Assembly: GCA_902775285.1 (NCBI GenBank)
Contig: CACYLI010000007.1
Location: 5,533-69,532, forward strand
Source: an uncultured Erysipelotrichaceae bacterium
GTDB lineage: Bacteria; Bacillota_I; Bacilli_A; RF39; UBA660
Length of the DNA stretch: 64,000 nucleotides
Direction: 5' to 3'
The notes below the pieces were generated by a model, which was not told the DNA's origin, did not search any database, and worked only from the letters and a program-made list of their open reading frames with translations. Positions 5,901 through 61,059 of this stretch are shown one piece after another (within the stretch, counting starts at the first letter, position 1; each line of letters starts with the position of its first letter). A program made the position numbers and the translations under genes.

Positions 5901-6512
5901 ATGTTAAAAATATATGCTTCTGATTTATCATTTGCAAGTCAAGTTTTTAAAAGTGGTTTTGATAGTATAAAAGTAGCTGCTTCTTCAATGCAAACAGAAA
6001 TAGATAAATTTGTAAATAATCCAGAATTAAAGAATAATTTAAAGGGTATAAGTTTTGATACTGCTAGAAGATATATGGACACTTATAAAGATTCTTTTAC
6101 TGGTCTTTCATCTTTATGTGATACATTATCAAGTAATATTGTTTCTGCTAATAATAGTGTTATTTCAGCTATGCAAGGTCATAGTCCAGTTGATATAGAT
6201 TCAGAAGAAGAATTAAAAAGTCAAATCAAAAAACTAAATGATAATATCGCAGCAACAAGGCCTCATTTATATAAAACCAAAAAGACAGTTGATGCTAAAG
6301 GTAGAGTTTGTTTTGTAGAAACAGGAGAAATTAATCAATATTGGTATGATAGAATACAAGAGTATTCTAGAGAAATAAGAGAACTTGACGAACTTATTAA
6401 AATAGTACAGGCTACTAGAGCAGCATATGAAGCAGCAAAAGGTCAAATGAATGGTGAACTTGGAGAAGTATTAAATTCATTTTTAACTAAAACAAGCACA
6501 TTTTTAGGATAG
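5901..6512 (+). CDS. stand-alone LXG-like helical module (paralogous to the C-terminal or middle modules of the 23781 and 59020 proteins)
   Basis: 203 aa and all-helical by composition. LKGISFDTARRYMDTY, PVDIDSEEELKSQIKKLNDNI and LYKTKKTVDAKGRVCFVETGEINQYWY align segment-by-segment with the other two paralogues. Ends in ..FLG, as the 59020 protein ends in ..LLG. Confidence 0.6.
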   Translation: MLKIYASDLSFASQVFKSGFDSIKVAASSMQTEIDKFVNNPELKNNLKGISFDTARRYMDTYKDSFTGLSSLCDTLSSNIVSANNSVISAMQGHSPVDIDSEEELKSQIKKLNDNIAATRPHLYKTKKTVDAKGRVCFVETGEINQYWYDRIQEYSREIRELDELIKIVQATRAAYEAAKGQMNGELGEVLNSFLTKTSTFLG

Positions 6513-6522
6513 GAGTTAAATT

Positions 6523-8187
6523 ATGGAAGAAAAAGAGTTAAATGATAATACTGAATTAGAAGAAAATGGTGAACCTTTAAGATATACAAGTACAGTTACT
6601 ATAGAATACACACATGAAAGAAAAAAATATTCATCTGAAAATTATGAAAATAATAGTAAAGATGGTTTAAATGATGCACTAAATGATATGGGTTTTACTA
6701 GTAATGGAGCGAGTAGAAGTAATACATTAATTATTTATCCTAGAGATTTAGAACCAGGAGAAACACTACCTGTAGTTGTAATGGTTGGTGGAGATAATCA
6801 AAATAGTAGATTTAGGAATGGATATTTTAGAACATATGAGACAGTTAATGGAGAACCATTACCTAGAGCTATTTATGTAGTTAGTGGACCATCAGAAAAT
6901 GAAACACTTGAAGATAACGCTATTCTTGATGCTTATAAATTCTTAGAAAGCCATGGAGTTGATGCTAGTCAAGTAGGCGTAGAAGCATTTAGTGGTGGTG
7001 GAGGAGCAGGACTTATGATTGCTGAACAGGCTGCTCAAGATAATCCAAATATTCCAGTTGTAGTACTTCTTAATGATGCTTCCAAATGGGGACAAGAAGC
7101 TTCTCAAAGTAGACAAGATTATATTAATGGATTAAATCTATATAGTACTGCAAATAGATGTGATAATTTATCAATTGTATATTTTGAGAGTAATGATGAT
7201 AGAGTAACTTCAATGTGGAAAAAAATTAGTGAGAAAGTTGCACAAAGAGCTTATCATGTAACATGGAATTTGAATAGTTATGGTTTTTGCTCACATGCAG
7301 GAGCAAATTATTACTCACAATATTATAATTTTTTATTATCTTTAATGGGTTTAACAGATAATTTAACGGATGAAAAAAATGGTTATAGAGTAAAAAATGG
7401 AGCTGATAATAAAAAAGATTTAGTAGAGTCTATTGGTTCTATGGTATTAGTTGCATATTCTGGTGATTCATTGCAAGAATACTTAAATGGATTCATGACT
7501 CAAATAAATAGTTTTGGATCTGAAGATGCTGGTAGTGCTAGTGGAAATGATCTAATCGAACTTGAAAATAGTATGGCAAATAGTGTTTCTTCTTGTATTT
7601 CAGATATATCTAGTGTTCTATCAATGGATGCATCTTTACTTGCTGGAATTGGTGAAAGTATGGAAGGACTTGATGAAAGACTTAAAAGAATGCAAGATGA
7701 AAATATTTTAGATTTGTTTAAAGATTTTAGTATTCCAGAACATTTAAATAAACCTAATGAAGATATAATTATTGTTGATGATAATGATAGACATATTGAT
7801 TTAGATGATTTAGAAAATGAAGATGATATTCCTATTCAAGATAAACCGGATAGAAATAATTCTCATTCATATACACCACAAAATAGTTTTGACACATCTC
7901 CTATAATAGATTTAAAAAAAGGAGTATATTTACTTGGTGTTAATAATGATGGAGCAAAAGTAATTATAGATTATGATGGTAAAAAAGTAACTAATATGGT
8001 TTATCAATATGATTTTAATGATGCAACTGAAGCACAAACTATAAAGAATATGTATAGTAATTCAAAGTTAGTTAGTGATGTTAAAATATTTAATAATGAT
8101 AAGATAGTAGAAGTTACTTTAAAAAAATCTGTATATTCTAATAAAAGTATAGATGAACTTTCAAAAGGTTTAAATATGTATTCATAA
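6523..8187 (+). CDS. alpha/beta-hydrolase-like (esterase/PHB-depolymerase-like) protein, no signal peptide, with shared helical region and a unique C-terminal domain
   Basis: LPVVVMVGGDNQNS strand, nucleophile-elbow-like AFSGGGG, and a later CSHAG His. Followed by helical region Y shared with the 23781 and 59020 proteins. Starts 10 nt after the LXG-like ORF. Confidence 0.6.
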   Translation: MEEKELNDNTELEENGEPLRYTSTVTIEYTHERKKYSSENYENNSKDGLNDALNDMGFTSNGASRSNTLIIYPRDLEPGETLPVVVMVGGDNQNSRFRNGYFRTYETVNGEPLPRAIYVVSGPSENETLEDNAILDAYKFLESHGVDASQVGVEAFSGGGGAGLMIAEQAAQDNPNIPVVVLLNDASKWGQEASQSRQDYINGLNLYSTANRCDNLSIVYFESNDDRVTSMWKKISEKVAQRAYHVTWNLNSYGFCSHAGANYYSQYYNFLLSLMGLTDNLTDEKNGYRVKNGADNKKDLVESIGSMVLVAYSGDSLQEYLNGFMTQINSFGSEDAGSASGNDLIELENSMANSVSSCISDISSVLSMDASLLAGIGESMEGLDERLKRMQDENILDLFKDFSIPEHLNKPNEDIIIVDDNDRHIDLDDLENEDDIPIQDKPDRNNSHSYTPQNSFDTSPIIDLKKGVYLLGVNNDGAKVIIDYDGKKVTNMVYQYDFNDATEAQTIKNMYSNSKLVSDVKIFNNDKIVEVTLKKSVYSNKSIDELSKGLNMYS

Positions 8188-8188
8188 T

Positions 8189-12478: not shown

Positions 12479-12964
12479 ATGAGTTATTCAATAATTGCCG
12501 CTATTGGTAAAAATAATGAGTTAGGAAAAGATAATGGTTTAATATGGCATTTACCAAATGATTTAAAATTCTTTAAAGAAGTTACAACAGGTAAAACAAT
12601 AATAATGGGAAGACGTACTTTTGAGTCTTTACCAAGAATGCTTCCTAATAGAAAACATGTTGTATTATCTAGTAGTAATGATTTTCCTGATGGTGTATTA
12701 GTGTTTCATTCATTAGAAGAAATACTTGATTATTTTAAAGATTTTAATGAAGAATTATTTGTAATAGGTGGTGCATCTATTTATAAATTATTTTTAGAAT
12801 ATGCGAGTTGTTTATATTTAACTGAAATAGATAAAGAATGTAGTGAAGCAGATGCTTATTTTCCAAAATTTGATAAAAATTTATATGATAAGGAAATAAT
12901 AAAAGAGAATAGTGATAATGGTATTAACTATACTCATGTTTTATACAAAAGAAAAGAGATGTAA
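12479..12964 (+). CDS. folA: dihydrofolate reductase
   Basis: IAAIGKNNELGKDNGLIWHLPNDLKFFKEVT, GRRTFESLP and VIGGASIY. Third gene of a tmk-thyA-folA operon. Confidence 0.92.
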   Translation: MSYSIIAAIGKNNELGKDNGLIWHLPNDLKFFKEVTTGKTIIMGRRTFESLPRMLPNRKHVVLSSSNDFPDGVLVFHSLEEILDYFKDFNEELFVIGGASIYKLFLEYASCLYLTEIDKECSEADAYFPKFDKNLYDKEIIKENSDNGINYTHVLYKRKEM

Positions 12965-12975
12965 ATCTCTTTTTA
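12955..12975. terminator. weak hairpin between convergent folA and the yjcZ-like gene
   Basis: AGAGAT-GTAA-ATCTCT followed by TTTT. Confidence 0.35.
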
Positions 12976-13176
12976 ATTTCCACAACAATGATTTTTAGGA
13001 TTATTGTCAAAATTATTATTGTTTACAAATCCTACTCCAAAAATTATTACTAAAAGAATGAATAATACTAAAATAAATGCAGCTCCATATCCATAGCCAT
13101 TTGAATAATACCCAGGATATGTGTTATACATCATTTGATTATTAGCATATCCACCATTATAACCATAATAATACAT
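12973..13176 (-). CDS. YjcZ-like tiny Gly/Tyr-rich sporulation membrane protein
   Basis: 67 aa. A G/Y/N-rich N-terminus is followed by AAFILVLFILLVIIFG, the pattern of the tiny_TM_bacill/YjcZ family. RBS AGGAGG upstream on the minus strand. Confidence 0.6.
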   Translation of the reverse strand: MYYYGYNGGYANNQMMYNTYPGYYSNGYGYGAAFILVLFILLVIIFGVGFVNNNNFDNNPKNHCCGN

Positions 13177-13290
13177 AATATACCTCCTTTAATATCTATA
13201 ATATTGTATTAAAGTAGTCTTGTTCTTGACACAACTAAAACTATAGTTAATTTACAATTTATAGAATTTGATTTATAATTATGTTATATT

Positions 13291-14502
13291 ATGAAAAAGA
13301 ATAGCAATATAAAAAACTTTTTTAAAGATTTGAATAAGCCAATATTATTCTTGACTCTTTTTTATGCTATAGGAGGGGCTTTCTTAATATTAGATGCATC
13401 TAGTATTTCATCTGTTTTATATTATGGATTAGATACACCTTATTACTTTTTTATAAGACAAATAATTTTTATAGCAGTTGCAATTATTATTTCATTTTTT
13501 GTAATGTTATTTCCAACTAAATATTATAAGGGAGTTTCATTATTTTTATCAGTATTATTTATAGGAGTTTTATTTGTAGTTTATTTAAAAAATGAACTTT
13601 TTAGTACTTCTGTTAGTGATGTAACATTATCTATTGGAAATGGTAAATTTCAACCAGCTGAATTTTTAAAAGTATTTTTAATTATGTATATGGGAGCATA
13701 TTATGGAGCTTGGGCAAATAGAAGTAAACATGCTATTTTATCATTCTCTTTTCCACTTATGTTATGTATAGCATCTGCATTACTTATACTTCTTGGAGGA
13801 GACTTTGGATCTGCTGCTATAATGGTTGCTTTATATGCATTAGTATTTATGAGTGTTCCATCTAAAGAAAAAATAGTAAATACACTAAAAACAATTGCAT
13901 GTATTGGATTAATACTATCTGTGCTCGTATTAAAATTTGCATATAAAGTAATACCGCAAAAAGTACTTGAAAGTGATTATAGAGCTAATAGACTTATATA
14001 TAAAAGCCCTTGTGATAGATATGAAGATAATTCTGGATATCAAGTATGTAATGGATATATAGCGATTGATAATGGAGGACTTACTGGTAGTGGAATAGGA
14101 GAATCAGTTCAAAAATATATGTATTTGCCAGCAAGTCATACTGATTTTATTTTTCCAATTGTTGTTGAAGAATTAGGAGTAATAGCTGGAGTTTTAATTA
14201 TATTTGGATATATGGCTATAATATTCTTTGTATTTAAAGTAGCAACAGAATCATATCAACTTCAAAATTCAATTATTTGTTATGGTATAGCAATATATTT
14301 CATGTTACATATATTTGTTAACCTTGGAGGAGTTTTAGGAATTATTCCTTTAACTGGAGTACCTCTTCCTTTCTTAAGTTATGGTGGAAGTTTTTGTATT
14401 ACTCTTATATGTTCATTTGCTATTGTTCAAAGAATTAATATAGAAAATAGTCGAGAAAAAAGAAATAGACTATTAAGGAGAAAAAATTATGAAAAAGAAT
14501 AA
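13291..14502 (+). CDS. SEDS-family peptidoglycan polymerase (FtsW/RodA/SpoVE family)
   Basis: About 10 TM helices. Contains SHTDFIF and PLTGVPLPFLSYGGS motifs. Confidence 0.88.
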   Translation: MKKNSNIKNFFKDLNKPILFLTLFYAIGGAFLILDASSISSVLYYGLDTPYYFFIRQIIFIAVAIIISFFVMLFPTKYYKGVSLFLSVLFIGVLFVVYLKNELFSTSVSDVTLSIGNGKFQPAEFLKVFLIMYMGAYYGAWANRSKHAILSFSFPLMLCIASALLILLGGDFGSAAIMVALYALVFMSVPSKEKIVNTLKTIACIGLILSVLVLKFAYKVIPQKVLESDYRANRLIYKSPCDRYEDNSGYQVCNGYIAIDNGGLTGSGIGESVQKYMYLPASHTDFIFPIVVEELGVIAGVLIIFGYMAIIFFVFKVATESYQLQNSIICYGIAIYFMLHIFVNLGGVLGIIPLTGVPLPFLSYGGSFCITLICSFAIVQRINIENSREKRNRLLRRKNYEKE

Positions 14503-15247
14503 ACCATTAGAAATATTATTAATTATTTTAGCAATCAGTTTATTAGGATATTTAGTTTACGTTAAAGAATTTAAAAAAGAAAAAGTAAATGATTATGAAA
14601 AGAATGATCCTATTATAAACAATGAAACATCTATTATTAAGTGGAAAGATTTAGAAGATTTTCCAAAAAATGATAATATTAAATTTATTAATTTATCTTA
14701 TGATGAAATTAGATGTGAAGAGGATGATATTAAATATTGTAGTAAGATAGAATTACTTAAAAATAATAATTTATCTTTTAAATTAAATGATATAGATATA
14801 TTATTTAAATGTAGTAAATATGAAGATGATAAATGCAATGAAAATGAAATAACTTTAGATAATAAAATAAAATTTAGTTTTGGTATTAATGATGAATATG
14901 AAGATACAAATACACTAATATATAAAACAGATAATTATTATATAATAAAGCAAGAAAATACTATTTTTGGACAAGGAAAACTTATTATTTATTCTCTTAC
15001 TGGGGAAGTATTAAAAGAAATAAATAATAGTGTTACTGAAATTGACGTAGTAAGTGAAGAAGAAAATGAAAGTTATGAATATATTCCAACTATAAAAGAT
15101 AATAAATTATATATAGTTATGAGTGATTATTTAAATTATGAAAATGGACTAGATAATATTGTTCATTTTGGTTATATAGATTTAAGTAAGTCTTTTGAGT
15201 TTGTTGAATTATATCAAATAAAAGCTATTGTAAGCTTAGGAATATAA
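14489..15247 (+). CDS. hypothetical membrane-anchored protein
   Basis: N-terminal TM helix (ILLIILAISLLGYLVYV). Overlaps the end of the SEDS gene by 14 nt, suggesting translational coupling. No family recognised. Confidence 0.55.
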   Translation: MKKNKPLEILLIILAISLLGYLVYVKEFKKEKVNDYEKNDPIINNETSIIKWKDLEDFPKNDNIKFINLSYDEIRCEEDDIKYCSKIELLKNNNLSFKLNDIDILFKCSKYEDDKCNENEITLDNKIKFSFGINDEYEDTNTLIYKTDNYYIIKQENTIFGQGKLIIYSLTGEVLKEINNSVTEIDVVSEEENESYEYIPTIKDNKLYIVMSDYLNYENGLDNIVHFGYIDLSKSFEFVELYQIKAIVSLGI

Positions 15248-15267
15248 AGAAATGAATTAAAAAAAGC

Positions 15268-15296
15268 TTGATATAAATAGTTTTTTGTGTTATTAT
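15268..15296 (+). promoter_or_regulatory. sigma-A-type promoter of rplS (TTGATA-17-TATTAT with TG)
   Basis: TTGATA at 15268-73, a 17-nt spacer ending in TGT, and TATTAT at 15291-96. Confidence 0.55.
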
Positions 15297-15302
15297 CATA
15301 TT

Positions 15303-15379
15303 GCTTAATCCGATGTATGTACATATTTAGTTGTAAGTTGCATATAAGATTAAATAAAGCACAAAGGAGGATATAGAGT
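15303..15379 (+). ncRNA. rplS 5' leader (possible L19-leader-type autoregulatory element)
   Basis: About 77-nt untranslated leader between the predicted promoter and the RBS. L19 leaders are known in Firmicutes. The structure was not verified here. Confidence 0.3.
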
Positions 15380-15718
15380 ATGAACTTGATTGATAAGATC
15401 AACAAGAAACAAATTAAACCTGACACTCCTAATTTTCAAGTAGGAGATACTGTTAGAGTTGATGTTAAGATTAAAGAAGGTAAGAGAGAAAGAATTCAAG
15501 CTTTTGAAGGAATAGTAACAGCTCGTAAAGGTGGAAGTGTTTCAGAAACTTTTACTGTTAGAAAGAAAAGTGGAAGCATTGGTATTAACAGAGTTTTCCC
15601 AGTTAATAGTCCATTAATTGATAAAATTACTGTTGTTAAAAAAGGAAAAGTTAGAAGAGCTAAACTTAACTTCTTAAAAGATTTAACAGGAAGTTTTAAA
15701 ATTAAAGAAAGAAATTAG
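15380..15718 (+). CDS. rplS: 50S ribosomal protein L19
   Basis: FQVGDTVRVDVKIKEGKRERIQAFEG is typical of L19. RBS AAGGAGG upstream. Confidence 0.95.
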   Translation: MNLIDKINKKQIKPDTPNFQVGDTVRVDVKIKEGKRERIQAFEGIVTARKGGSVSETFTVRKKSGSIGINRVFPVNSPLIDKITVVKKGKVRRAKLNFLKDLTGSFKIKERN

Positions 15719-15737
15719 GTTTTAAACCTAATTTTTA
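15713..15737 (+). terminator. terminator/attenuating hairpin between rplS and lepB
   Basis: ATTAGGTTT/AAACCTAAT palindrome followed by TTTTT. Confidence 0.5.
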
Positions 15738-15759
15738 TTTATAGAAAGGGTGAAAGTAA

Positions 15760-16251
15760 GTGAAATTTTGGAAAGAAGCAAGAGATTATATAATTATAAT
15801 AGTATCAGTTGTATTAATTAGAACTTTTTTAGTCACACCAGCTATTGTAGATGGAGCTAGTATGGACGATACATTAAAAGATGGAAATCTTGTTATTATC
15901 AATAAAATTGTTTATAAAGTAAGTGATATAAAAAGATTTGATGTAGTAGTTGTATCAAATGAAATTAATAATGATAAAATTATTAAAAGAGTTATTGGCA
16001 TGCCTAATGAAACAGTAGAATATAAGAATAATAAATTATATATTAATGATAAAGAAGTTAAAACTAATATTAAATTTAAAGACACTGAAGATTTTATAAG
16101 AACTACTTCTGATAATGAGTATTTAGTTTTAGGTGATAATAGACCTGTATCTAAAGATAGTAGAGTACTTGGAAATTTCACTAAAGAAGATATTATTGGA
16201 AGGGTTAAAATAAGATTATTTCCTTTTAATAAAATTGGTAAAATTGATTAA
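15760..16251 (+). CDS. lepB: signal peptidase I
   Basis: S26 motifs GASMDDTL (Ser), KRVIGMPNE (Lys) and GDNRPVSKDSR. GTG start with an AAGGGTG RBS. Confidence 0.9.
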   Translation: MKFWKEARDYIIIIVSVVLIRTFLVTPAIVDGASMDDTLKDGNLVIINKIVYKVSDIKRFDVVVVSNEINNDKIIKRVIGMPNETVEYKNNKLYINDKEVKTNIKFKDTEDFIRTTSDNEYLVLGDNRPVSKDSRVLGNFTKEDIIGRVKIRLFPFNKIGKID

Positions 16252-16273
16252 GAGTAGTTTTTACTCTTTTTTA
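16250..16273 (+). terminator. terminator after lepB
   Basis: AAGAGTA-GTTTT-TACTCTT followed by TTTT. Confidence 0.6.
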
Positions 16274-16274
16274 A

Positions 16275-16303
16275 TTGAAAAATAATATATTTATCTGTAA
16301 AAT
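16275..16303 (+). promoter_or_regulatory. sigma-A-type promoter of the nfnAB-like operon (TTGAAA-17-TAAAAT)
   Basis: TTGAAA at 16275-80 and TAAAAT at 16298-303. Confidence 0.45.
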
Positions 16304-16326
16304 ATATATAGGATAGGTGAATATAA

Positions 16327-17166
16327 ATGTATAAAGTAATAAGTAACAAGAAAGTTAATTTAAATTCATTTGAAATGGTAATAGAAGCCCCTTCTGTATG
16401 TAAGAATTTTATACCTGGCCAATTTTGTATATTAATGGCAAATGAAGAAAGTGAAAGAGTTCCTTTGACTATATATGATTGTGATAAAGAAAAAGGACTT
16501 ATTTATGTAATATATCAAGTAGTTGGAGCATCTACTTTAGAATTATCTCATGTTAAAAATGAAATATTTAGTATATTAGGTCCGCTTGGAAAACCAAGTG
16601 AAATATGTAAAAATGCACTTGAATATAAGGATAAAAAAATTGTTTATGTTGGTGGAGGAATTGGAATAGCACCTGTTTATCCTCAAGTTAAATATTTAGC
16701 TTCATGTGGAATAAAAGTGGACGTCATATATGGAGCTAGAAGTGCTAATATGTTTATTATTAGAGATAAAATAGAAAGCGTTTGTAATAAAATTAGTTAT
16801 GCTACTGATGATGGCTCTTTTGGAATTAAAGGATTTGTAACAAATATTTTAGAAAAAAATATAGATAAATATGATATTTGTGTAGCTATTGGTCCAGTTA
16901 TTATGATGAAGAATGTTTGTGATGTAACTAAAAAATATAATGTAAAAACTATTGTTAGTATGAATCCAATAATGGTAGATGGTAGTGGAATGTGTGGAGC
17001 TTGTAGATGTGAAATAGAAGGAAAACCTAAATTTGCATGTATTGATGGACCTGAATTTGATGGACATAAAGTTAATTTTGAAAATGCATTAAAAAGAATG
17101 AATATTTATAAAGAAGAAGAAACTAAAAAATATGAAGAAATTAAAAAAAGATTAGGTGAAAAATAA
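16327..17166 (+). CDS. ferredoxin-NADP+ reductase/sulfide dehydrogenase small subunit (NfnA/SudB/PyrK-like FAD, 2Fe-2S protein)
   Basis: GGGIGIAP NAD-binding motif and a C-terminal Cys cluster (CGACRC..C). Paired with a GltD-like subunit. Confidence 0.8.
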   Translation: MYKVISNKKVNLNSFEMVIEAPSVCKNFIPGQFCILMANEESERVPLTIYDCDKEKGLIYVIYQVVGASTLELSHVKNEIFSILGPLGKPSEICKNALEYKDKKIVYVGGGIGIAPVYPQVKYLASCGIKVDVIYGARSANMFIIRDKIESVCNKISYATDDGSFGIKGFVTNILEKNIDKYDICVAIGPVIMMKNVCDVTKKYNVKTIVSMNPIMVDGSGMCGACRCEIEGKPKFACIDGPEFDGHKVNFENALKRMNIYKEEETKKYEEIKKRLGEK

Positions 17167-23780: not shown

Positions 23781-26700
23781 ATGGCAGATGTGTATATTCC
23801 AAAAACAGCAGAGGAAAAAGTAGATTTTGTTTATGAATTCATGAAAGAAAATGAAAGCTTTTTTGGTAAGAGTGAATCATATAATGTAAAAGCTATTGAA
23901 ACAGAGGATGGAGTAGGAATAGTTGCTGAGTATAAAAGCCCTAATGGTACAGGAGTTAATTATTTATATATAAATCCCAAAACTGATTTTGAAAATATTA
24001 CAATGTTTGAAAATCCAATACCAGATTCTTGCTATAATGGTGATCGTCTTGTATCTTCTACGCCATATGGTACATATGGTAATAGACACAATAGAATATT
24101 AAAGGGAGATTTTTCAAGTGTTCCAGAAAATGCAATAATGATTCCTTCAAGTAAATATGAAACTGGTACAAGCAAAACAGTGTATAGTCCAGATGAAGTT
24201 GCGGTTGCTTTTATTAATAAAGTAGGAAATAAGCCTGAAATGATTGCCACTGTTGGATGTAGTAATGGTGGAGGTGGGTCTTTAAAATCAGGAATTTTTG
24301 AAGCATTAAATCATCCAGGTGTTAAAGTAGAAGCATGGGGATTAGATGGATATTATCAAGAATTTTATCCAGAAAAAATATTGGATTCTCTTAGTGAAGA
24401 AGAAATGGAAACGCTAAGAGAGAATTTAACTTTTGTAAATGTTATTCCAAATGAAAAATGTCAAGGCGGTATTGCTAATGGAAGGCCAAGATATAATTGG
24501 AAAAATGAACATGAAACAAGTCAAACAATGACAAAATATGTTTTGGAATTAGAAAAAAGAGGAATCAAAAATATTATATATACTGCTGATTTTGAAGGAG
24601 TACATGAAAACTGGCATGGAGCACATTTAGATATGTATCAATTTGGATCTAATTTGCCTGATTTTATGCTTCATAATACAGATGAAATCAAATGTAGTGG
24701 TGAATATGGAGTTATAGATGGAGCTTATACTTATGATGGAATTAGAAGAATATTAGTTCCTCTTGGTGTAAAAGATGATATATCTCAAAAAGTAGATTTT
24801 AGTAATATACCAGATTATTCTAAATCTTATATTAAATATGAAAATGAAATTGAATTATTAAATAATATTAGAGACAATTTAGAAATGTTTTCAAATTCTA
24901 ATATGGAAACAAAAGGAAGTGATAGTTTTCCTGGGATACTATTTAGTATGACTAATGGAGTTTCTTCTTCTAATGATTCATTTATTAGTAAAACAAAAGA
25001 AGAAACTAATGCACTTGCATCTGTAATAGGATCTTATATTATATTAGATAAAGAACTTGCAAGTGATGCTGATAATCTAAAAGATAATTTAGGTACTTCT
25101 TTATTTGACTATAATAGAGTCTCAGTAGAAGGGCCAACTTATACGCCATTAACTTTTTCTAATATAAATGGTGAGATAGATTTTAATGAGTTTAATAATA
25201 TGTTTAATGGTACATCTTTATGTGGACCAATCGCATCTTTTATAGGTGAAAATAAACAAAATATAACATCTTTAAAATCATCTTTAACAGCATTAATTGA
25301 TAGTGAATATTATTCTTCACCTGGGCTTGGTTATATAAAGTCTTCAATTGATAGATATTCTATTCTATGTGATTGTAATTTAGAATTATTAGATAGCATG
25401 GAGTCGTCTTTTACAAAAGCTCTAAAAAAAGTTTATGATGCGATGGATGGAAAGAGTATTGATTTAAGCATAGAAGATGAATTAAACGATAAGATATTAA
25501 AATGTACTCAAGATATAGATAATTTGATTGCCGCTAATAGTGAAAAAAGAACAGTTCTAGTAGCAACTCCAGTTACTATACCTGGAAAACAGATAATAGT
25601 TTATGTTCCTAAAAAAGAATATGTTTTATCAGAGTCAGCAAGAGCTGAAAATGAAAGAATAATTGAATCTAATAGAAAAGATATTGAAGATTTTAAAATA
25701 GAATTACAGAGAATTGCTGATGTAAAAGAAGCAATAAAAGAAGCTGAAGAATTAATGGATGATTTAAATATTGAAATCCAACAATATAATTCTAAAGTAG
25801 AACATTTAACCCCAACACCAACTTTAAGTTTATATGATGTTGAGAGATTAAAACGTGGGGAAAATCTTGGATTTAATCCAACTATATATGATGTAGGAGA
25901 TACTAGTAAACCAGAAATAATAGAAACAAATGAAGAAGAATCAAAAGTAGAGCCTTCTGTAACTCCTTCGCCATCTCCAACCCCAACACCAGCTCCTTCT
26001 CCAAAAGTAGAAGAACCATCGAATGTTTCAGAACCTATAGAAAAAGAGACTGAAAAAACTTCAACATCAAGTACAAGTAGTACAGGTTTTGGAAATGGTT
26101 TCTTAGCAGGATATAAGCCTGGAGAAGGAATGAGTGAAAGTAGAATTCCAACTTCTACTGAAAAAGAAGACACTCCACAAGTAGATATAGGTGATAGAGC
26201 ATCTCATGCATTTAGTGGGCCTGATTTTATAACATCTGCTTCTGGAGTACTTGGTAGTGTAGGTGCTACAGCTATAGGAGAAACTTTAAATAATTCTAAA
26301 AGTCCTCAAACAAAAGCTTCTGATACTGGATTTGGAAATAATTTCTTAGCTGGATCTAAACCTGAAATCACACCAAAAGAAGAAACTATTAGTTCTTCGC
26401 AAGTTGTTGAAACAGAAGAAAAACCACAAGTAGATATAGGTGATAGAGCATCTCACGCATTTAGTGGACCAGATTTTGAAAGTAATGATAATAAATCAAT
26501 ACCTGATTTAATAAAAGATTTATTTCCAACAAAAGATAAAGAAGATACATCAAAAGATAGTAATGATATCGGATTTGGAAACAATTTCTTAGCTGGATCT
26601 AAACCTGAAGTCAAATTAAAAGATGAAATACAAAGACCAGTAGTTGAGACGCAAAGGCCACAAGTAGACATAGGTGATAGAGGCTCACATGCATTTAGTG

Positions 26701-27473
26701 GACCAAATTTTGAAAGAACAGATAAAAAAGATCAAACTACTATTAGTACAGAAAAACCTGTTATTAATGAACCAAATGTTGAAGAAATAAAACCAGTTGT
26801 TACTCCACAGAATGTTATACCAAGTGTTGATAATAATCCACATATAGAAGAAAAGACACCAAGTCAACTAACAGGAAGTGTTCCACAATGGCAACCAACT
26901 CCAACACCACAACAACATGATCCAGTTGTTAAAACACCTGAAGTTGAACCAGAAGTTATCATTGATACACCAACTCCAGAAATTGAACCAGAAGTTATTA
27001 TTGAACCACCAACACCGGAAGTTGAACCTGAAATTATTCCTGAACCAATTATAGAACCAGTGGTTATAGTTGATGAACCAACAATTGATCCAACACCAGA
27101 AGTAATAGTAGATACACCAGTAGTTGAGCCAACTCCAGAAAAAGTACCAGAATCAATACAAACTACTCCAAAAACTCCAACTAAACCTACACCACAAGTT
27201 ACTATTCCTTCAAGCCCAATAATAGAAGAACCAATAACAAGTGATATTAATTATGATAATATAGAAATAATAAATGCAGATAATAGTGTTAAACCAGATT
27301 TAACTAATGAAATAATTAATAATACTTTAGAAGATAAAAAAGAGAATAATTCTAATGTATTAAAAGATATTGGTATTATTGCTGGAGTAGGAGCATTAGC
27401 GGGTGCTAGTGCATATGGAATATATAAAGCAAGCGAAAATAAAAAAGATGAAGATGAAGAAAAGACAGAATAA
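23781..27473 (+). CDS. 1230-aa tail-anchored surface-type protein: alpha/beta-hydrolase-like N-domain, LXG-like helical module, 3 tandem ~81-aa repeats, Pro/Glu-rich stalk, C-terminal TM helix; no signal peptide
   Basis: GCSNGGGG nucleophile elbow and a later WHGAH. SPGLGYIKSSIDRY and SIDLSIEDELNDKILKCTQDIDNLI align with the paralogues. Repeats carry GFGNxFLAG and PQVDIGDRxSHAFSGPxF. TPEVEPEVII-type stalk, then IGIIAGVGALAGASAYGIY followed by a charged tail. Confidence 0.75.
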   Translation: MADVYIPKTAEEKVDFVYEFMKENESFFGKSESYNVKAIETEDGVGIVAEYKSPNGTGVNYLYINPKTDFENITMFENPIPDSCYNGDRLVSSTPYGTYGNRHNRILKGDFSSVPENAIMIPSSKYETGTSKTVYSPDEVAVAFINKVGNKPEMIATVGCSNGGGGSLKSGIFEALNHPGVKVEAWGLDGYYQEFYPEKILDSLSEEEMETLRENLTFVNVIPNEKCQGGIANGRPRYNWKNEHETSQTMTKYVLELEKRGIKNIIYTADFEGVHENWHGAHLDMYQFGSNLPDFMLHNTDEIKCSGEYGVIDGAYTYDGIRRILVPLGVKDDISQKVDFSNIPDYSKSYIKYENEIELLNNIRDNLEMFSNSNMETKGSDSFPGILFSMTNGVSSSNDSFISKTKEETNALASVIGSYIILDKELASDADNLKDNLGTSLFDYNRVSVEGPTYTPLTFSNINGEIDFNEFNNMFNGTSLCGPIASFIGENKQNITSLKSSLTALIDSEYYSSPGLGYIKSSIDRYSILCDCNLELLDSMESSFTKALKKVYDAMDGKSIDLSIEDELNDKILKCTQDIDNLIAANSEKRTVLVATPVTIPGKQIIVYVPKKEYVLSESARAENERIIESNRKDIEDFKIELQRIADVKEAIKEAEELMDDLNIEIQQYNSKVEHLTPTPTLSLYDVERLKRGENLGFNPTIYDVGDTSKPEIIETNEEESKVEPSVTPSPSPTPTPAPSPKVEEPSNVSEPIEKETEKTSTSSTSSTGFGNGFLAGYKPGEGMSESRIPTSTEKEDTPQVDIGDRASHAFSGPDFITSASGVLGSVGATAIGETLNNSKSPQTKASDTGFGNNFLAGSKPEITPKEETISSSQVVETEEKPQVDIGDRASHAFSGPDFESNDNKSIPDLIKDLFPTKDKEDTSKDSNDIGFGNNFLAGSKPEVKLKDEIQRPVVETQRPQVDIGDRGSHAFSGPNFERTDKKDQTTISTEKPVINEPNVEEIKPVVTPQNVIPSVDNNPHIEEKTPSQLTGSVPQWQPTPTPQQHDPVVKTPEVEPEVIIDTPTPEIEPEVIIEPPTPEVEPEIIPEPIIEPVVIVDEPTIDPTPEVIVDTPVVEPTPEKVPESIQTTPKTPTKPTPQVTIPSSPIIEEPITSDINYDNIEIINADNSVKPDLTNEIINNTLEDKKENNSNVLKDIGIIAGVGALAGASAYGIYKASENKKDEDEEKTE
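26085..26711 (+). repeat. three in-frame tandem ~243-bp (~81-aa) repeats inside the 1230-aa gene
   Basis: GGxTTTGGAAAyrrTTTCTTAGC starts at 26085, 26328 and 26571. CCACAAGTAGAyATAGGTGATAGAG starts at 26175, 26424 and 26658. Confidence 0.85.
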
Positions 27474-43336: not shown

Positions 43337-44566
43337 GTGATAATATTGAATTATAATATAAAAAACACTTTATTATTTATTAATGAAAATTTTGATATGG
43401 AATATGATAAATGGAATAAAAATGATAAATATGGTAGTTTTTTACTAGGAGAATCAAGTGAATCTTTTTTATCTATTGGTTTATCTAAAAGAAAAGTAAT
43501 TATTGATAAATCTAAAGTAATAAAAATACTTAATAAACATAAAAGTATGTCTAATGATATTATTAAAAAAATACCATTAATATTAAGTAATCCATTATTG
43601 ATTATGAAATCTAAAACAGTAAGTGGAAGAATAGTTGTATTTGGAGAAGTTTTTGATGAACTTAAAACTCCTGTTATGATAGCTTTAGAATTAAATCCAT
43701 ATGAAAATAAATATAATAGTGAAAAAATATATAAAGTAGCTAGTGCTTATGGAAAAGAAAGCTTAAAAAAGTATTTTGAAGTTTGTGAAGATATTATCTA
43801 TGTTGGGAATAAGAATAGAATAAATGAATGGTTGGATGAAACAGGATATAAGTTAGCTTTAAATAAAAGTAATAATGTTAAAATAAAAGATATTATTGAA
43901 AGTGAAAGACCTAGAGAAAGAGCTATTAAGTATGGTGTTGAGAATTTATCAAATGAAGAGTTACTTGCTATTATACTTAAAACTGGTACTAAAGAGTTAA
44001 ATGTAAAAGAATTATCAAATAAAATACTTAGTAAAATAAAAAATATACAAGATTTAAAAAACGTTACTTCTTCTTTTTTAATGCAAATTAAGGGAATTGG
44101 TAAAGTAAAAGCAATTACTTTGTTATCTTCTTTAGAACTTGGTAAAAGAGTATATTATAGTGTAGTAAAAGAAAGCATTAGATTAAATAATTCTTCTAAA
44201 GTATATGATTATTTTAAAGATTTATTTATTAATGAAAAACAAGAATATTTTTATGCTATATATTTAGATTCTAAATCTAAACTTATATCATATAAGCTAT
44301 TATTTAAAGGAACTATTAATACTTCTTGTGTTCATCCAAGAGAAGTATTTAAATATGCTTTTTTAGAAAGTGCTGTATCTATAATTGTTATACATAATCA
44401 TCCATCTGGAGACCCTACACCTAGTATTCAAGATAAGGAAGTAACTTCTTCACTTTTTGAAATAGGGAAAATTATGTCACTTCCAGTAGTTGATCATATA
44501 GTATTTGGTGATAATAAATATTTTAGTTTTTATGAATATATTAATAATAAAGAGAATAATATTTAA
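43337..44566 (+). CDS. radC: RadC (JAB/MPN) protein with an extra ~185-aa N-terminal domain
   Basis: The C-terminal half is canonical RadC (ERPRERAIKYG..LSNEELLAIILKTG, GIGKVKA, HNHPSGDPTPSIQD). The N-terminal extension is unrelated to RadC. The start is uncertain (GTG 43337 or ATG 43397). Confidence 0.8.
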   Translation: MIILNYNIKNTLLFINENFDMEYDKWNKNDKYGSFLLGESSESFLSIGLSKRKVIIDKSKVIKILNKHKSMSNDIIKKIPLILSNPLLIMKSKTVSGRIVVFGEVFDELKTPVMIALELNPYENKYNSEKIYKVASAYGKESLKKYFEVCEDIIYVGNKNRINEWLDETGYKLALNKSNNVKIKDIIESERPRERAIKYGVENLSNEELLAIILKTGTKELNVKELSNKILSKIKNIQDLKNVTSSFLMQIKGIGKVKAITLLSSLELGKRVYYSVVKESIRLNNSSKVYDYFKDLFINEKQEYFYAIYLDSKSKLISYKLLFKGTINTSCVHPREVFKYAFLESAVSIIVIHNHPSGDPTPSIQDKEVTSSLFEIGKIMSLPVVDHIVFGDNKYFSFYEYINNKENNI

Positions 44567-56644: not shown

Positions 56645-57847
56645 ATGATTTATTATAAAGGTGTTAGAGAAGAAATAAGTAATTTAGAAGATTTTATATA
56701 TATAGGAACAAATATAAATAAATATGGTAAAAGAATATCTTATGATTTTGAAAAAAGATTTACATCTCTTGAAAATCCAAATGAATTTTATGACTATTTA
56801 GCAGGACTTAGAAGTAGTAATCCATTTGGTTATGAAATTGAGATTACTTCTATGGATAAAAGAAGAAGTGTATTTAATCTTGGAATAGATATTAAAAAAA
56901 ATGTAAATATAGAATTTGATTATGATATAATTTATACTAAAGTTAAAGATATTAATGGATATGAATATGCTAAAGAATTAAAAACAGGTTTAATATTTCC
57001 ATTATATAATTCTAAAAACTATATGACTCATATATATTTAACTTCATATCCAACTTATGAAAGAGATAAAGATGATGCTAATAATAGTATTTATTCTTTA
57101 TATTTATGTACTAAAGAAATAAATCCAACTATTTTAAAAAGTGGAGTAGTAGTTTATGGAGATAAAATAGCAACTCAAAATGATATAGAAGATTATGATG
57201 TTGATTTAGATGATTTAACATATGATTATAAAGAAAATGTATTTAATAATTTACAATTACAAAAAGAAGTAAATCTTAATCAAAGTGAAGAAATGTCAAT
57301 AATCTCACATATTGTATATTATTTATCTCTTATAAAAAATATAAATGAAGATGATTATAAAGTTTTAAATGAAAAATATAGATTTATATTAGATAATTAT
57401 GAAAATAAAAATAATAATATTACGTTAAATATAGATGATTTAAATAGACTTAAAAGAAGTGTAGAATTTATATATTTATTTAATAGAAATAATAAAAGCG
57501 GAATATATAAGAAATTAAAAGAAAATATTAATAATTCTAATGATGAAAGTAGTATAAATGAAGTAGATTATTTATATGAATTGTTTTTAGAAAATAAAGA
57601 TTATTTTACTTTAAAAGAACAAGATGAATTACTTAAATATTTCTCAATATTTTATATATTATTTATTAAAAATACTAGAGTAGATTTTGATAGTATTATA
57701 AATACATATTTTAGTGATTTGAAATTTTATATATTATCTTTAATAAATTCAAGTAATAAAAATAATATTAGTAATCCAAAAGATGTATATGATTTAATTA
57801 ATAATGAAGAAATGTATGAAGAAATAAAATTATTATTAGGTAAATAG
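56645..57847 (+). CDS. hypothetical protein
   Basis: 400-aa ORF with a GGGAGG RBS. No signal peptide or recognisable motifs. Confidence 0.5.
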   Translation: MIYYKGVREEISNLEDFIYIGTNINKYGKRISYDFEKRFTSLENPNEFYDYLAGLRSSNPFGYEIEITSMDKRRSVFNLGIDIKKNVNIEFDYDIIYTKVKDINGYEYAKELKTGLIFPLYNSKNYMTHIYLTSYPTYERDKDDANNSIYSLYLCTKEINPTILKSGVVVYGDKIATQNDIEDYDVDLDDLTYDYKENVFNNLQLQKEVNLNQSEEMSIISHIVYYLSLIKNINEDDYKVLNEKYRFILDNYENKNNNITLNIDDLNRLKRSVEFIYLFNRNNKSGIYKKLKENINNSNDESSINEVDYLYELFLENKDYFTLKEQDELLKYFSIFYILFIKNTRVDFDSIINTYFSDLKFYILSLINSSNKNNISNPKDVYDLINNEEMYEEIKLLLGK

Positions 57848-57909
57848 TGTAACTAAAAATAAATATAATTCATAACTTATTAATGAAATTAGATAAAGGA
57901 GTGAATTAT

Positions 57910-58335
57910 ATGTGTAATAACAATAATAATGAATGTAATAATTGTATTATGGAAATATTACAAGTTATTAATGTACTTCAATCAAATGCTTGTCCAGATA
58001 ACTGTCTTCTTTCTTGTGATAGACCTGCTTTAGGAGGAGGACCAAATTGCGTTATATGTAATACTAGACCAATAATGTTATATACTTGCGCTGGTAATGG
58101 TACACCTCTTTCAATGCCTACTACAAGAGTAGAAACATCTGCTACTACAAGTAGTGTATTTAGAGTAGAAAAGGTTAGTGGATGTTGTTGTACATTTAGA
58201 GTACTTGCACCAAATCCAGATACAACATCTACTTATCCATATGTAGCTACTGATTCATTGTTTACAATGGATACTAATTGTTTATGTGCAGTTAGATGTT
58301 TAAATGACACATTTGTTGAATGCACAACATTATAA
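57910..58335 (+). CDS. CotZ/CotY-like cysteine-rich spore coat/exosporium protein
   Basis: Cys-rich (NECNNCIMEILQVINVLQ..., CCCTFRV, CLCAVRC), resembling the CotY/CotZ family. AAAGGAGTG precedes ATG 57910. Confidence 0.65.
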   Translation: MCNNNNNECNNCIMEILQVINVLQSNACPDNCLLSCDRPALGGGPNCVICNTRPIMLYTCAGNGTPLSMPTTRVETSATTSSVFRVEKVSGCCCTFRVLAPNPDTTSTYPYVATDSLFTMDTNCLCAVRCLNDTFVECTTL

Positions 58336-58397: not shown

Positions 58398-59000
58398 ATG
58401 AAAGAATATGAAAATGAATTATATAGTAAAGGAATTAAATATATAGCAGGAATTGATGAAGTGGGTAGAGGTCCTTTAGTTGGCCCAGTTGTGACATGTG
58501 CAGTTATTTTACCAATTGATTTTTACGATGAAAGAATAAATGATTCTAAAAAATTAAGTGAGAAAAAAAGAGAATTATTATATGATGTTATTATGGAAAA
58601 TGCTATAAGTGTTGGAATTGGAATGTCTAGTGAAGAAGTAATTGATGAAATAAACATTTTAGAAGCAACTAAGAAAGCTATGTTAGAAGCAATTGATAAT
58701 CTAAGTGTTAAACCAGAACATTTATTAATTGATGCTGTTAAATTAGATACATCTATTCCACAGACTTCTATTATTAAAGGAGACCAAAAAAGTTTAAGTA
58801 TTGCATCTGCATCTATTATAGCTAAAGTTACAAGAGATAGAATGATGATAGAACTTGATAAAAAGCATCCCGAATATGATTTTATTCATAATAAAGGATA
58901 TGGAACAAAAAAACACATAGAAGCTTTATATAAATATGGAGCATTAAAAGAACATAGAAAAACATTTGAACCAGTTTCTAGTATTATAAATAATAATTAG
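58398..59000 (+). CDS. rnhB: ribonuclease HII
   Basis: [23 protein letters not shown] and [10 protein letters not shown] motifs. Confidence 0.93.
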
Positions 59001-59019: not shown

Positions 59020-61059
59020 ATGGAAGTAATTAAAAATTCAAGTGGTGAAATAGACGCACAAAAAGGATATGGAGTTATTGTAGGAGAAGATAATCAAACT
59101 CACATATTTTGTAAAGAAAATGATGATTCTATTACTGAATATATTTTAACTCCAGGACAAAATAAAATAACTTATGAAGGTGGTACTATTTATTTAAATA
59201 TGCCAGAAATAGATGAAAACACATCATTTTTAGCAGTAGGAAATGGAAACTCTGATTGGAGTGAAGCTTTATTAAATGGTACAGATTATAGTGTTGGTTT
59301 AAGTTCAATTGAAACACCAAATAGTAATAGAGTTTATGGGTATATTAGAGGTGGTCAAACTACAACAACTGGATATGAAAAAGTAATAGGATTATTTAAA
59401 GATATTGCTAGTGCTAATGGAATAGAAAACCCTAATATTGCAACATCTGGATTTAGTGGTTCAGGACCTGCAGCACACAGTAGTGCAAGAAGTATAGAGG
59501 GAGTGAGTGTTTGCTTAGAAGCAGACCCATGTTCACCTAATTCAAGAGGAAAAGAAAAAGATTATAAGTCAGATGAAAATGTTTATACAATTTCTGTAGC
59601 ATGTGGACCAATTAGCGCTAAAAATAAAACTGAAGATACAGTAAGTATGAGAGATAATCAAATAAAAAATACTTTAATAATTGAATTAGATGCTAATAGA
59701 AGTCGTTATCATGCTAGTACTATTGAAGTATTATCTACTTCTGGTTTAACGGATTTTATAGATGATCATATAGATATAAATGAAGTTATAGATAAAATAA
59801 ATAAAGATGGATTTAAGGTAAGTAAAGTAGTCTTAATTGATGAAAATGGAAATATAATTGAAGATGATTATGAAAAAACTCAAGAATTTTTAGATAAAGC
59901 GTATATTGAAATTTCAAGTAGTAGAGATGGTAGTAAAGTATTATCTTATGATTTTTCATCAGATGAAGAAAAAAGTATATATTATTTATTAAATAAAAAA
60001 ACAAATCTTAAAAAGTACTTGTCTGATGAAAAAATATCAGTAAATTATAATGATGCTTTTGATGGAATAGAAAGTATCATAAACTTTTCAACTTCTCATA
60101 ATTATTTAAATGATAAAAATATAAATTTACCTGTAGGAAATAATAAAGTTAATTCTTTTTTTAATCAATCTAAACCATTTTTAGAATCTTCTAGTATTCT
60201 AGATTATAAAGTTAAAGAAACACTAACTGCTATGTCTATACAGCTTATTAATATGGCAAGAACTGAAAGTGGACTTCAGCAAATTGCAGAAAGTGACTTA
60301 AATACTGCGCATGGTATATTTGATTATAATAGTAGTGAATTAAAAGAGTTTTTTAATAATAGTATAGATGTGTATACTAAACAGTTTAATTTAGGAATAA
60401 TAGAAAACTTTGAAAATGGTAAAACAGGACTTGTTGATATAAATCAAATAGATAGTTTTTTTGATAGTGCTTTATTATCACAAATATCTAGTCAAAAAGA
60501 TATGGCAAAAGATACAAAAGAATTAATAAGTTCTTTAAAGGAAAGTGGTAGTTATGAAGGAGAAGCATTTAAAGATTTTAATCTTTTATTAGATAATTAT
60601 AATACATTTATGGATTTAAGATATAATTCTGCTGATTTATTAGATACTGTATATACAAGTTCTTTAGATAAAATGAAAACATTTTTCACATCAAAAGGAA
60701 TTAGTTCAATAAATGATGAAAATTATCAAGCAACACTAGACCAAATAGAAAAAAATAATCTTTTAATATCAGATTGGGAAGCAAAAGCAAAAGAATACTA
60801 TAAAGAACCTATATATAAAACATTTAATTTAGGTAAAAAAAGCTTTGATATAATAATAGGTTATGAAAAAATATATCCATATAAAGATGATGCTAATAAA
60901 GCTATTCAAGAACTAAATGATATGAATAGAGAATTACAAACATATGTAGATTTAGTAGAAGAGTGGACGAGTATTTTAAATGAATGTACACAAAGTATTA
61001 ATGAAGCTAATGAAATAGTTAAAAATAATTTTAGTAGTCAAGTAAGTTTATTAGGATAA
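59020..61059 (+). CDS. alpha/beta-hydrolase-like protein with C-terminal LXG-like helical module (reverse arrangement); no signal peptide
   Basis: GFSGSG nucleophile elbow and a later RYHAS. C-terminal SYEGEAFKDFNLLLDNY, SSINDENYQATLDQIEKNNLLI and YKEPIYKTFNLGKKSFDIIIGYEKIYPY align with the 5901 and 23781 modules. Confidence 0.7.
   Translation: MEVIKNSSGEIDAQKGYGVIVGEDNQTHIFCKENDDSITEYILTPGQNKITYEGGTIYLNMPEIDENTSFLAVGNGNSDWSEALLNGTDYSVGLSSIETPNSNRVYGYIRGGQTTTTGYEKVIGLFKDIASANGIENPNIATSGFSGSGPAAHSSARSIEGVSVCLEADPCSPNSRGKEKDYKSDENVYTISVACGPISAKNKTEDTVSMRDNQIKNTLIIELDANRSRYHASTIEVLSTSGLTDFIDDHIDINEVIDKINKDGFKVSKVVLIDENGNIIEDDYEKTQEFLDKAYIEISSSRDGSKVLSYDFSSDEEKSIYYLLNKKTNLKKYLSDEKISVNYNDAFDGIESIINFSTSHNYLNDKNINLPVGNNKVNSFFNQSKPFLESSSILDYKVKETLTAMSIQLINMARTESGLQQIAESDLNTAHGIFDYNSSELKEFFNNSIDVYTKQFNLGIIENFENGKTGLVDINQIDSFFDSALLSQISSQKDMAKDTKELISSLKESGSYEGEAFKDFNLLLDNYNTFMDLRYNSADLLDTVYTSSLDKMKTFFTSKGISSINDENYQATLDQIEKNNLLISDWEAKAKEYYKEPIYKTFNLGKKSFDIIIGYEKIYPYKDDANKAIQELNDMNRELQTYVDLVEEWTSILNECTQSINEANEIVKNNFSSQVSLLG

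Follow-up and report, generated by a model that had tools for sequence, protein, structure and literature searches.

Predicted hydrolases without signal peptides share a helical module, possibly a type VII-like export signal, in uncultured low-GC Bacilli

T7SS (type VII secretion system) lipases with a reverse architecture, in which the enzyme comes first and a helical domain follows, have been described as TslA (2023), as Tsl2/TslM (2026), and at T7SSe/g loci (PMC10730906, PMC13560087, PMC11217815), and the helical domain of TslA carries a reversed G-x-L motif (PMC10730906). Here we analyzed a 64,000-nucleotide (nt) stretch of DNA from an uncultured Erysipelotrichaceae bacterium, hereafter the window, and in particular its open reading frame (ORF) W3 (59020-61059, + strand), which encodes a protein of 679 amino acids (aa) made of an N-terminal hydrolase head, a helical region (Y), and a helical module (X). 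A first-pass annotation of this DNA had taken TslA as the sole precedent for such an order; Tsl2/TslM and the reverse lipases at T7SSe/g loci (PMC13560087, PMC11217815) show that it is not, and the concept of a W3-like architecture is thus not new. Our favored explanation, a tentative one, is that W3 and its relatives are modular hydrolases without signal peptides that are exported via X on a type VII-like route.

Like TslA/TslB/TslC and Tsl2 (TslM-P) of the Staphylococcus T7SSb, W3 has an alpha/beta-hydrolase-type enzyme at its N terminus, a helical domain after it, and no Sec signal, and in both cases polymorphic enzyme heads and several paralogs per genome are found. The differences are nevertheless clear. 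W3 is without detectable similarity to any PDB chain, sequence searches of the PDB with single proteins and with a Y+X profile having returned no match. Its head resembles hydrolases of the cutinase/PETase/DPP4 type, whereas a fungal class 3 lipase fold has been reported for TslA, and the turn motif of its helical module reads forward, L-x-G, rather than reversed, G-x-L. The W3 family has region Y and a beta-hairpin insert in addition, its long forms carry X internally and a membrane anchor behind it, and X also occurs free-standing. Finally, no TilA/DUF1433-type immunity gene lies adjacent, and usually no Lap or WXG100 gene. To our knowledge, no T7SS has been documented in the host lineage of W3.

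W3 starts with an ATG, and its frame is open throughout in the ORF list of the window. Since this frame opens at 59011, an upstream extension is impossible and no signal peptide can be hidden there. An N-terminal hydrophobic segment was absent from all family members (maximum 15-mer Kyte-Doolittle hydropathy below 0.8 in the first 45 aa), confirming the earlier statement that a Sec signal is lacking; the sequence motifs quoted for W3 were likewise all present in their places (GFSGSG at aa 144-149, RYHAS at 229-233, SYEGEAF at 511-517, and the hairpin stretch at 596-621). A protein identical to W3 is carried by 5 metagenome contigs. The features of W3 are the following.

59020..61059, + strand: W3, hydrolase head, helical region Y, and module X; no signal peptide.
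59047..59919, + strand: class A head, the N-terminal alpha/beta-hydrolase domain (aa 10-300), predicted by Foldseek comparison of the AlphaFold2 (AF2) model.
59449..59466, + strand: nucleophile elbow G144-F-S146-G-S-G, with Ser146 as the predicted nucleophile.
59524..59526, + strand: Asp169 (EADP), predicted triad acid; D169-P170 is invariant and ends strand 162-170.
59710..59712, + strand: His231 (RYHAS), predicted triad base, after strand 218-223; invariant in class A.
59905..60420, + strand: helical region Y (aa 296-467), in which LDYKVKE at aa 394-400 is a conserved motif.
60421..61056, + strand: module X (aa 468-679), the conserved module that defines the family; predicted local distance difference test score (pLDDT) about 90 in the AF2 model.
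60550..60570, + strand: SYEGEAF turn motif, forward [L/I/Y]-x-G-x-x-[F/W], between two model helices.
60799..60873, + strand: amphipathic beta-hairpin insert (DSSP strands 594-604 and 607-618), ending at a conserved Y-P-[YF], which is Y-P-Y in W3.

The AF2 model of W3, built on a 12-sequence family alignment, had a mean pLDDT of 74, reaching about 85 over aa 10 to 300. Comparison of this head with the PDB by Foldseek gave 105 matches at E ≤ 1e-3, of which the best 50 were all alpha/beta-hydrolases; the top matches were IsPETase/cutinase-type enzymes and DPP4/FAP, with a best E value of 8.5e-5 and a TM-score of about 0.5 on the target. With the cutinase/PETase/dienelactone-hydrolase group (IsPETase 6EQE, 5XG0) the head has in common the fold, an elbow at a strand-helix junction, and the order Ser-Asp-His; it differs from IsPETase-type hydrolases by an identity of only about 12%, an elbow reading G-x-S-x-S-G, a beta-sheet subdomain added at the N terminus (aa 17-61), and the lack of a signal peptide. 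In the model, strand 140-146 ends at Ser146 and is followed by helix 148-158. Heads of class A were also found in P0003, P0006, P0007, and P0009, and positions G144, S146, S148, and G149 are invariant over these five sequences, as is His231 over the four that are full length in this class. The invariance of Ser146, Asp169, and His231, together with their positions in the model, thus predicts that the head of W3 is a catalytically intact Ser-Asp-His hydrolase. No hydrolase model in Pfam or NCBIfam matched it. On the strength of the modeled fold, the head is very probably an alpha/beta-hydrolase and most likely an esterase or lipase, the activity being suggested by its fold neighbors. An elbow of the form G/A-x-S-x-G/S-G, with a later Asp and His, could be read in every head class of the family. 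The first-pass annotation had proposed Ser-His hydrolase heads for three proteins of the window; for W3 this is borne out by the Ser-Asp-His order and the modeled fold, and for the heads of W2 (23781-27473) and W1b (6523-8187) motifs and weak profile links suggest an alpha/beta-hydrolase fold.

The remaining part of W3 (aa 296-679), modeled separately, gave a pLDDT of 74.6 and a predicted TM-score of 0.63, with module X at about 90. Region Y was modeled with lower confidence, and aa 425 to 467, the linker before module X, are disordered. Module X itself runs from helix 484-508 through the [Y]-E-G turn at 512-514 into helix 515-559, then through a short strand, helix 569-590, and the beta-hairpin at 594-618 into helix 622-677. 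Across the family its turn reads [L/I/Y]-x-G-x-x-[F/W]-x-x-x-K, and the Gly of the turn column is kept in at least 90% of the sequences. No Pfam or NCBIfam profile matched Y+X (about 385 aa), which is the probably non-enzymatic constant part of the protein and is modeled as an elongated helical bundle. The ClyA family (NheA, SmhA, MakA, XaxA) likewise combines a long bundle of helices with a beta-hairpin insert, and module X could be a membrane-inserting bundle of the ClyA/Nhe/XaxA kind, the hairpin being a tongue that enters a target membrane and delivers or positions the hydrolase. In line with this, the best Foldseek matches in the PDB include SmhA, NheA, and MakA, and aa 542 to 676 of W2 matched the NCBIfam XaxA model at E 4.9e-4 and 19.5 bits (cutoff, 125 bits). 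The Foldseek matches were, however, not significant (E 0.12 to 0.5, TM-scores of about 0.15, and root mean square deviations above 30 Å), other members lacked such profile matches, and genes for partner components are absent. Moreover, the hairpins of the family are amphipathic to polar, with mean Kyte-Doolittle values between -0.7 and +0.3. That of W3, at -0.3, is thus not a hydrophobic membrane tongue, and we rejected the reading of the hairpin as a "beta-tongue" on hydropathy. Because the hairpin is polar, a ClyA-like role of module X is very unlikely.

We then determined how far the parts of W3 are distributed. An exhaustive HMMER search with W3 through 1.84 billion cluster representatives returned 11 clusters only. 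P0002, P0004, P0008, P0010, P0011, and P0012 matched W3 over aa ~300-679 only (E 1e-18 to 1e-66) and differed in their N termini, while P0003, P0006, P0007, and P0009 matched its N-terminal 300 aa; P0003 also carries a diverged X, and the C-terminal part of P0007 is longer and of another kind. At least five classes of heads can be told apart, A (W3), B, C (W2), D, and E (6523-8187), related to one another only at hhalign P values of 2e-4 to 0.3, and, judged by sequence comparison, Y+X has been joined in evolution to at least five different hydrolase heads. Two layouts recur, and three head classes occur in both.

Short form, 673-727 aa: head, Y, and X (W3, P0002 to P0004, P0008, and P0010 to P0012).
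Long form, 950-1420 aa: head, other helices, X, Pro/Thr-rich repeats, and a C-terminal Gly-zipper hydrophobic segment (W2, P0007, P0013, the 1417-aa protein of locus L098, and the 970-aa protein of locus L103).
Head class A: short form in W3, long form in P0007.
Head class C: short form in P0008, long form in W2.
Head class D: short form in P0004, long form in the L098 long protein (heads 54% identical).

Region Y is confined to the short form, where it is kept in P0002, P0004, P0008, and P0010 to P0012. Genomes carry several paralogs: the window has three X modules, and L004 and L098 each contain a tandem pair. All family loci have a GC content of 24 to 30%, and the family is known so far only from uncultured low-GC gut or rumen bacteria (Bacilli). 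Other searches added little: a word-index homolog search gave only W3 itself and two fragments, and when GTDB genomes and JGI metagenomes were scanned by pattern, no short form came up and a single long-form member did, in a metagenome-assembled genome (MAG) labeled "Tenericutes." Neither head nor tail was assigned to a significant family when the window proteins and the relatives were scanned with Pfam, NCBIfam, PHROGs, and PADLOC, and a phage or defense-system reading was rejected on these library scans. Among the tandem pairs, the L004 paralogs (3332-6187 and 6277-8250) are both of the long form, with tails about 48% identical and diverged heads. P0012, which has a class B head (L101, 10001-12085), comes from the same samples as the window organism (ERZ1029112 and ERR3224577) at the same GC content (24.9%), and it may be a fourth paralog of the genome of that organism.

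Within the window, a hidden Markov model (HMM) of the C-terminal region was run against all 171 ORFs and gave non-self matches only to 23781-27473 (18 bits) and 5901-6512 (15 bits), the next-best ORF scoring 2.7 bits. A broader X profile made without 5901-6512 recovered this ORF with an hhalign probability of 89% (P 2e-6; next ORF, P 0.057) and, by HMMER, at E 4e-8 among 9,637 ORFs; the module X of W2 was aligned with a probability of 88% (P 3e-6). Module X is thus common to three loci of the window, beyond chance by these profile comparisons. The other two loci comprise the following.

23781..27473, + strand: W2, long-form paralog of 1230 aa, with a class C head, unrelated helices, and an internal module X.
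25206..25853, + strand: module X of W2 (aa 476-691), aligning to positions 175-385 of the C-terminal profile.
5901..6512, + strand: W1a, stand-alone module X protein of 203 aa, first gene of a two-gene operon.
6523..8187, + strand: W1b, probable hydrolase of 554 aa, with AFSGGG at aa 155-160 and CSHAG at aa 256-260.

The C-terminal part of W2 consists of Pro/Thr-rich repeats followed by a Gly-zipper hydrophobic segment at aa 1197 to 1215 (Kyte-Doolittle value, 1.56). In all-against-all BLASTP, the head of W2 resembled that of P0008 (E 1e-14), while the tail of P0008 resembled that of W3 (E 4e-43); W1a matched W2 at E 7e-4. The three window proteins compared pairwise by BLASTP were near noise (E 0.04 to 0.5). 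Their heads are marginally related (hhalign P 2e-4 to 7e-3), that of W1b giving P values of about 2e-4 to 6e-4 against classes A, C, and D. W1a is preceded by a hairpin terminator and an AT-rich region of its own. W1a and W1b lie in different frames, the TAG stop of W1a overlapping an AGGAG site 7 nt before the ATG of W1b, and the pair was called identically on at least five contigs from different samples. Separate frames and a ribosome-binding site for W1b therefore make this locus a two-gene operon in which a free-standing X precedes a hydrolase; that the pair arose by a frameshift was rejected given that site and the same arrangement on at least five contigs. Profile comparison detected neither module X nor region Y in W1b, and no region Y in W2 or P0007. 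Hence the first-pass annotation, which had given all three proteins one architecture and a shared region Y, was right in placing module X at three loci but not in its uniform position: X lies at the C terminus of W3, inside W2, and in an upstream gene of its own, W1a, at the first locus, and region Y is undetectable in 23781-27473 and 6523-8187.

Two further observations concern these loci. The Pro/Thr-rich region of W2 (aa 700-1190) contains three repeats of about 80 aa with a V-D-I-G-D-R motif at aa 801, 884, and 962; VDIGDR also occurs in the L098 long protein (12824-17077), and a "FLAG/FLG" motif stands alongside it in long forms. Upstream of W1a, at a place commonly held by mutL, a 194-aa all-helical ORF without family (5010-5594) begins 10 nt past mutS; it is kept with the W1a/W1b pair on other contigs and is unrelated to module X or LXG.

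Taken together, W3 would be a two-part protein of a lineage-restricted, multi-copy family in uncultured low-GC gut or rumen Bacilli. Its payload would be the N-terminal head, a predicted esterase or lipase, and module X is probably a non-catalytic targeting or assembly module; it can be regarded as a separable unit because a stand-alone version, W1a, exists in an operon with W1b. We propose that X may serve in targeting and partner binding, in the manner of the WXG/LXG helical domains that form composite export signals, so that the proteins would be exported without a Sec signal and would work as hydrolases outside the cell or on its surface. That X plays the part of a WXG/LXG-type helical signal on a type VII-like route is possible, if short of probable; export by a T7SS-type route, taken as a single step, is slightly more doubtful.

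The same modularity is compatible with an export or release that does not involve a T7SS, by a holin-like protein, by lysis, or by another system, with X then anchoring or assembling the hydrolases on the cell surface. X would bind either the long membrane-anchored paralogs or a wall polymer, with a division of labor like that of dockerin and cohesin. Heads common to short and long forms would fit this scheme, as would the occurrence of X as one module in short, long, and stand-alone versions, and the organism does encode surface-display proteins, with Flg_new repeats, BspA leucine-rich repeats, and weak dockerin matches. Neither a holin nor another exporter adjoins any member, however; binding of X to X is purely conjectural; and export would require a large N-terminal region to pass through the membrane in spite of lacking a signal. 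We consider this explanation improbable.

Returning to the type VII-like route, we asked whether module X is an LXG domain, as the first-pass annotation had suggested. LXG toxins (PF04740, e.g., the B. subtilis YobL type) have in common with W3 a helix-turn-helix whose turn, hydrophobic-x-Gly, runs on into x-x-[A/F/W]-x-x-x-K, as well as a constant helical module of about 200 aa combined with variable enzymatic domains. In the AF2 model of W3, the turn indeed lies between two long helices, 484-508 and 515-559. In contrast to the N-terminal LXG domain, module X is never N-terminal but C-terminal (W3), internal (W2), or free-standing (W1a), and its beta-hairpin insert is undescribed for LXG. LXG was the only Pfam family that matched more than one member, always below threshold: against a curated cutoff of 26.5 bits, the best match was P0007 (aa 457-542 to model positions 4-84, E 0.0046, 17.3 bits), W2 scored 9.8 bits (E 0.92), and W3 and the remaining members gave no match.

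Several results weigh against an LXG identity and, with it, against a type VII-like route. No family member reached the Pfam LXG cutoff, and the L098 long protein, a close relative of P0007, had no match at all. For direct comparison, a YobL N terminus served to retrieve eight N-terminal domains (L088-L095) from Bacillus and Priestia plasmids whose annotation reads "T7SS effector LXG polymorphic toxin." Aligned with these eight real LXG domains, module X (11 sequences) gave an hhalign probability of 0.1% (E 0.48). The sole local pairing was that of the L-x-G turn of X with the F-x-G-K-G-A motif of LXG, and it was not significant; HMMER in both directions (databases of 8 and 17 sequences) gave at best 6.3 bits, in a non-colinear stretch. 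Foldseek with Y+X found nothing below E 0.03 in the PDB and BFVD (PDB best, E 0.07); its non-significant matches were coiled-coil, BAR, prefoldin, ClyA-type, and tape-measure proteins, and LXG, Esx, and TslA were absent among the PDB best 50. This last negative carries little weight: LXG structures in the PDB are few, and even a genuine LXG domain, searched by sequence, retrieves no PDB chain. In addition, the long forms carry X internally, followed by 500 to 700 aa and a hydrophobic tail, and we know of no T7SS substrate with such a layout. Membership of module X in PF04740 is therefore not supported. What stands of the LXG likeness is a resemblance in topology and motif, namely, the forward [L/I/Y]-x-G turn between two long helices; the Pfam matches stayed below threshold, the hhalign comparison was negative, and Foldseek gave no significant match. 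TslA itself has been reported to escape such profile methods (PMC10730906), so these results lower the claim that X is an LXG domain more than the claim that it works like one.

We next considered the genes around W3 and its relatives, which weigh in the same direction. EssC, EsxA, Lap, and immunity-type genes were not found in the 64-kb window: no ORF has the size of EssC (maximum, 1230 aa), FtsK/SpoIIIE domains are absent from the scanned ORFs, and there is no WXG100-like small ORF, in agreement with the earlier note that EssC, EsxA, EsaA, and immunity genes are missing here. Nor do any of these genes lie beside P0002, P0003, P0007, P0008, P0010, P0011, P0012, or the L103 member. The relatives are mostly single genes amid housekeeping neighbors, a different set at each locus (among them uvrB, cysS, rny, priA, and genes for guanylate kinase and a Na/Ca exchanger). 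No immunity gene adjoins the toxin-domain end; upstream of W3 there is rnhB, and the genes upstream of the relatives include those for a tRNA synthetase, a DHH phosphoesterase, and a Na/Ca exchanger. The start of W3 lies 19 nt past rnhB (58398-59000), without an intervening terminator, and the sole terminator-like hairpin around W3 is upstream of rnhB.

Such contexts would suit intracellular, membrane-associated hydrolases that are not exported at all, X being a coiled-coil oligomerization module. The long forms would be tail-anchored at the inner face of the membrane by the Gly-zipper segment, with the Pro/Thr-rich region as a flexible linker, short soluble forms or W1a-type adaptors would join them via X, and membrane lipids or cytoplasmic esters would be the substrates. 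Besides the loci inside housekeeping operons, with W3 directly after rnhB, this alternative accounts for the absence of signal peptides, of nearby secretion genes, and of immunity genes, for short/long pairs with the same head class, and for a module X that has no significant relation to LXG. Other features are at odds with it. Fast head swapping and divergent paralogs in each genome are typical of exported, conflict-related proteins, the cutinase/PETase-like fold is typical of secreted esterases, and regions that span the cell wall typically have Pro/Thr-rich stalks and repeats. A WXG100-like gene neighboring one locus, described below, also speaks against it. On balance, an intracellular role appears rather unlikely.

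This locus is the exception to the pattern of single genes. At L098/L099, P0004, whose Y+X shares 31% identity with that of W3, precedes two genes encoding 101 and 106 aa, behind which lies the long class D paralog (1417 aa, 12824-17077).

L098, 12152-12457 and 12468-12788 (also L099, 3161-3797): two small genes for helical proteins, between the short and the long member.

Over its full length, the 106-aa protein matched NF035934 (E 9.5e-5), TIGR03930 (E 1.4e-4), and PF06013 (E 2.4e-3); these three WXG100 matches were its top ones, yet all fell below the curated cutoffs. The 101-aa gene had no family match. Small helical genes 3' of a hydrolase gene recall tlaA1/tlaA2 3' of tslA, a likeness to the Tsl systems that is found at L098 only. 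The WXG100-like gene is the best link of the family to WXG proteins and the T7SS, as indirect support and in one organism; against it counts that the L098 small genes have no homolog in the window, in the fetched loci, or among GTDB representatives. Three small genes after the neighboring phosphoesterase (L001) were also considered as WXG-type partners and rejected, since by eye they do not look like WXG-type helical hairpins and no Pfam match is on record for them. The organism with P0003 and P0004 further encodes, at L096 1764-5261, a 1165-aa protein with Listeria-Bacteroides repeats and a pretoxin Hint domain (PT-HINT), followed by a 194-aa ORF, a layout of the classical polymorphic-toxin type.

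In its widest form, our proposal is of an undescribed class of exported hydrolases without signal peptides in uncultured gut Bacilli with reduced genomes, in which X, as a forward-oriented, LXG-like module that may be C-terminal, internal, or separate, is the signal for export and partner binding of a divergent type VII-like pathway and each head exists as a soluble short version and a long version tethered by a Pro/Thr-rich stalk and Gly-zipper; stated so fully, it is unlikely. If it were true, the rules on the position of T7SS targeting domains would be extended, and a T7SS-like system would exist in a lineage without a known one. A type VII-style X would work in forward orientation at the C terminus, within a protein, or as a subunit of its own, and little-known gut and rumen Bacilli would export esterases or lipases in this way, with polymorphic hydrolase effectors in the lineage. 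Whatever the T7SS link, Y+X is conserved, confidently modeled, without a profile in Pfam or NCBIfam, and repeatedly joined to hydrolase heads, and is thus a clean candidate for a new domain family. The practical value is modest for so rare a family in uncultured organisms.

One neighbor of W3 brings in a last explanation. Two genes upstream, at 57883-58335, lies a Cys-rich 150-aa ORF with a Pfam Spore-coat_CotZ match on record, adjoining a 400-aa ORF without family (56645-57847). W3 and its relatives could accordingly be spore-coat or other enzymes deposited by the mother cell, the helical module assembling a proteinaceous layer. Spore-coat proteins carry no signal peptide, which would explain its absence here. 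The CotZ-like neighbor is found at one locus only, however, the other members being in unrelated contexts; no sporulation genes were seen; and the Pro/Thr-rich stalk and hydrophobic tail of the long forms are unsuited to such a role. A spore-coat function is, in our view, extremely unlikely.

As for the rest of the window, its GC content is about 24%, and almost all genes lie on the + strand and are mostly housekeeping genes, including dtd, an M48 peptidase gene, mutS, thyA, ftsW/rodA, two P-type ATPase genes, and lon, together with radC, a capsule/LytR cluster, and rnhB. MutS of the window is at most 64% identical to that of uncultured rumen or gut MAGs labeled Erysipelotrichaceae, Bacilli, or "Tenericutes." RNase H genes abut two of the three family loci, an RNase HIII-like gene (8197-9141, - strand) being convergent with W1b and rnhB (58398-59000, + strand) lying directly upstream of W3; this adjacency is probably a coincidence. 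An unusual fusion is encoded at 43337-44566, where a phage MuF_C domain (Pfam E 1e-17) makes up the N-terminal part of a RadC/JAB protein. The GC skew is strongly positive all along the window (1-64000), which, with nearly all genes on the + strand, fits a single leading-strand segment of a replichore.

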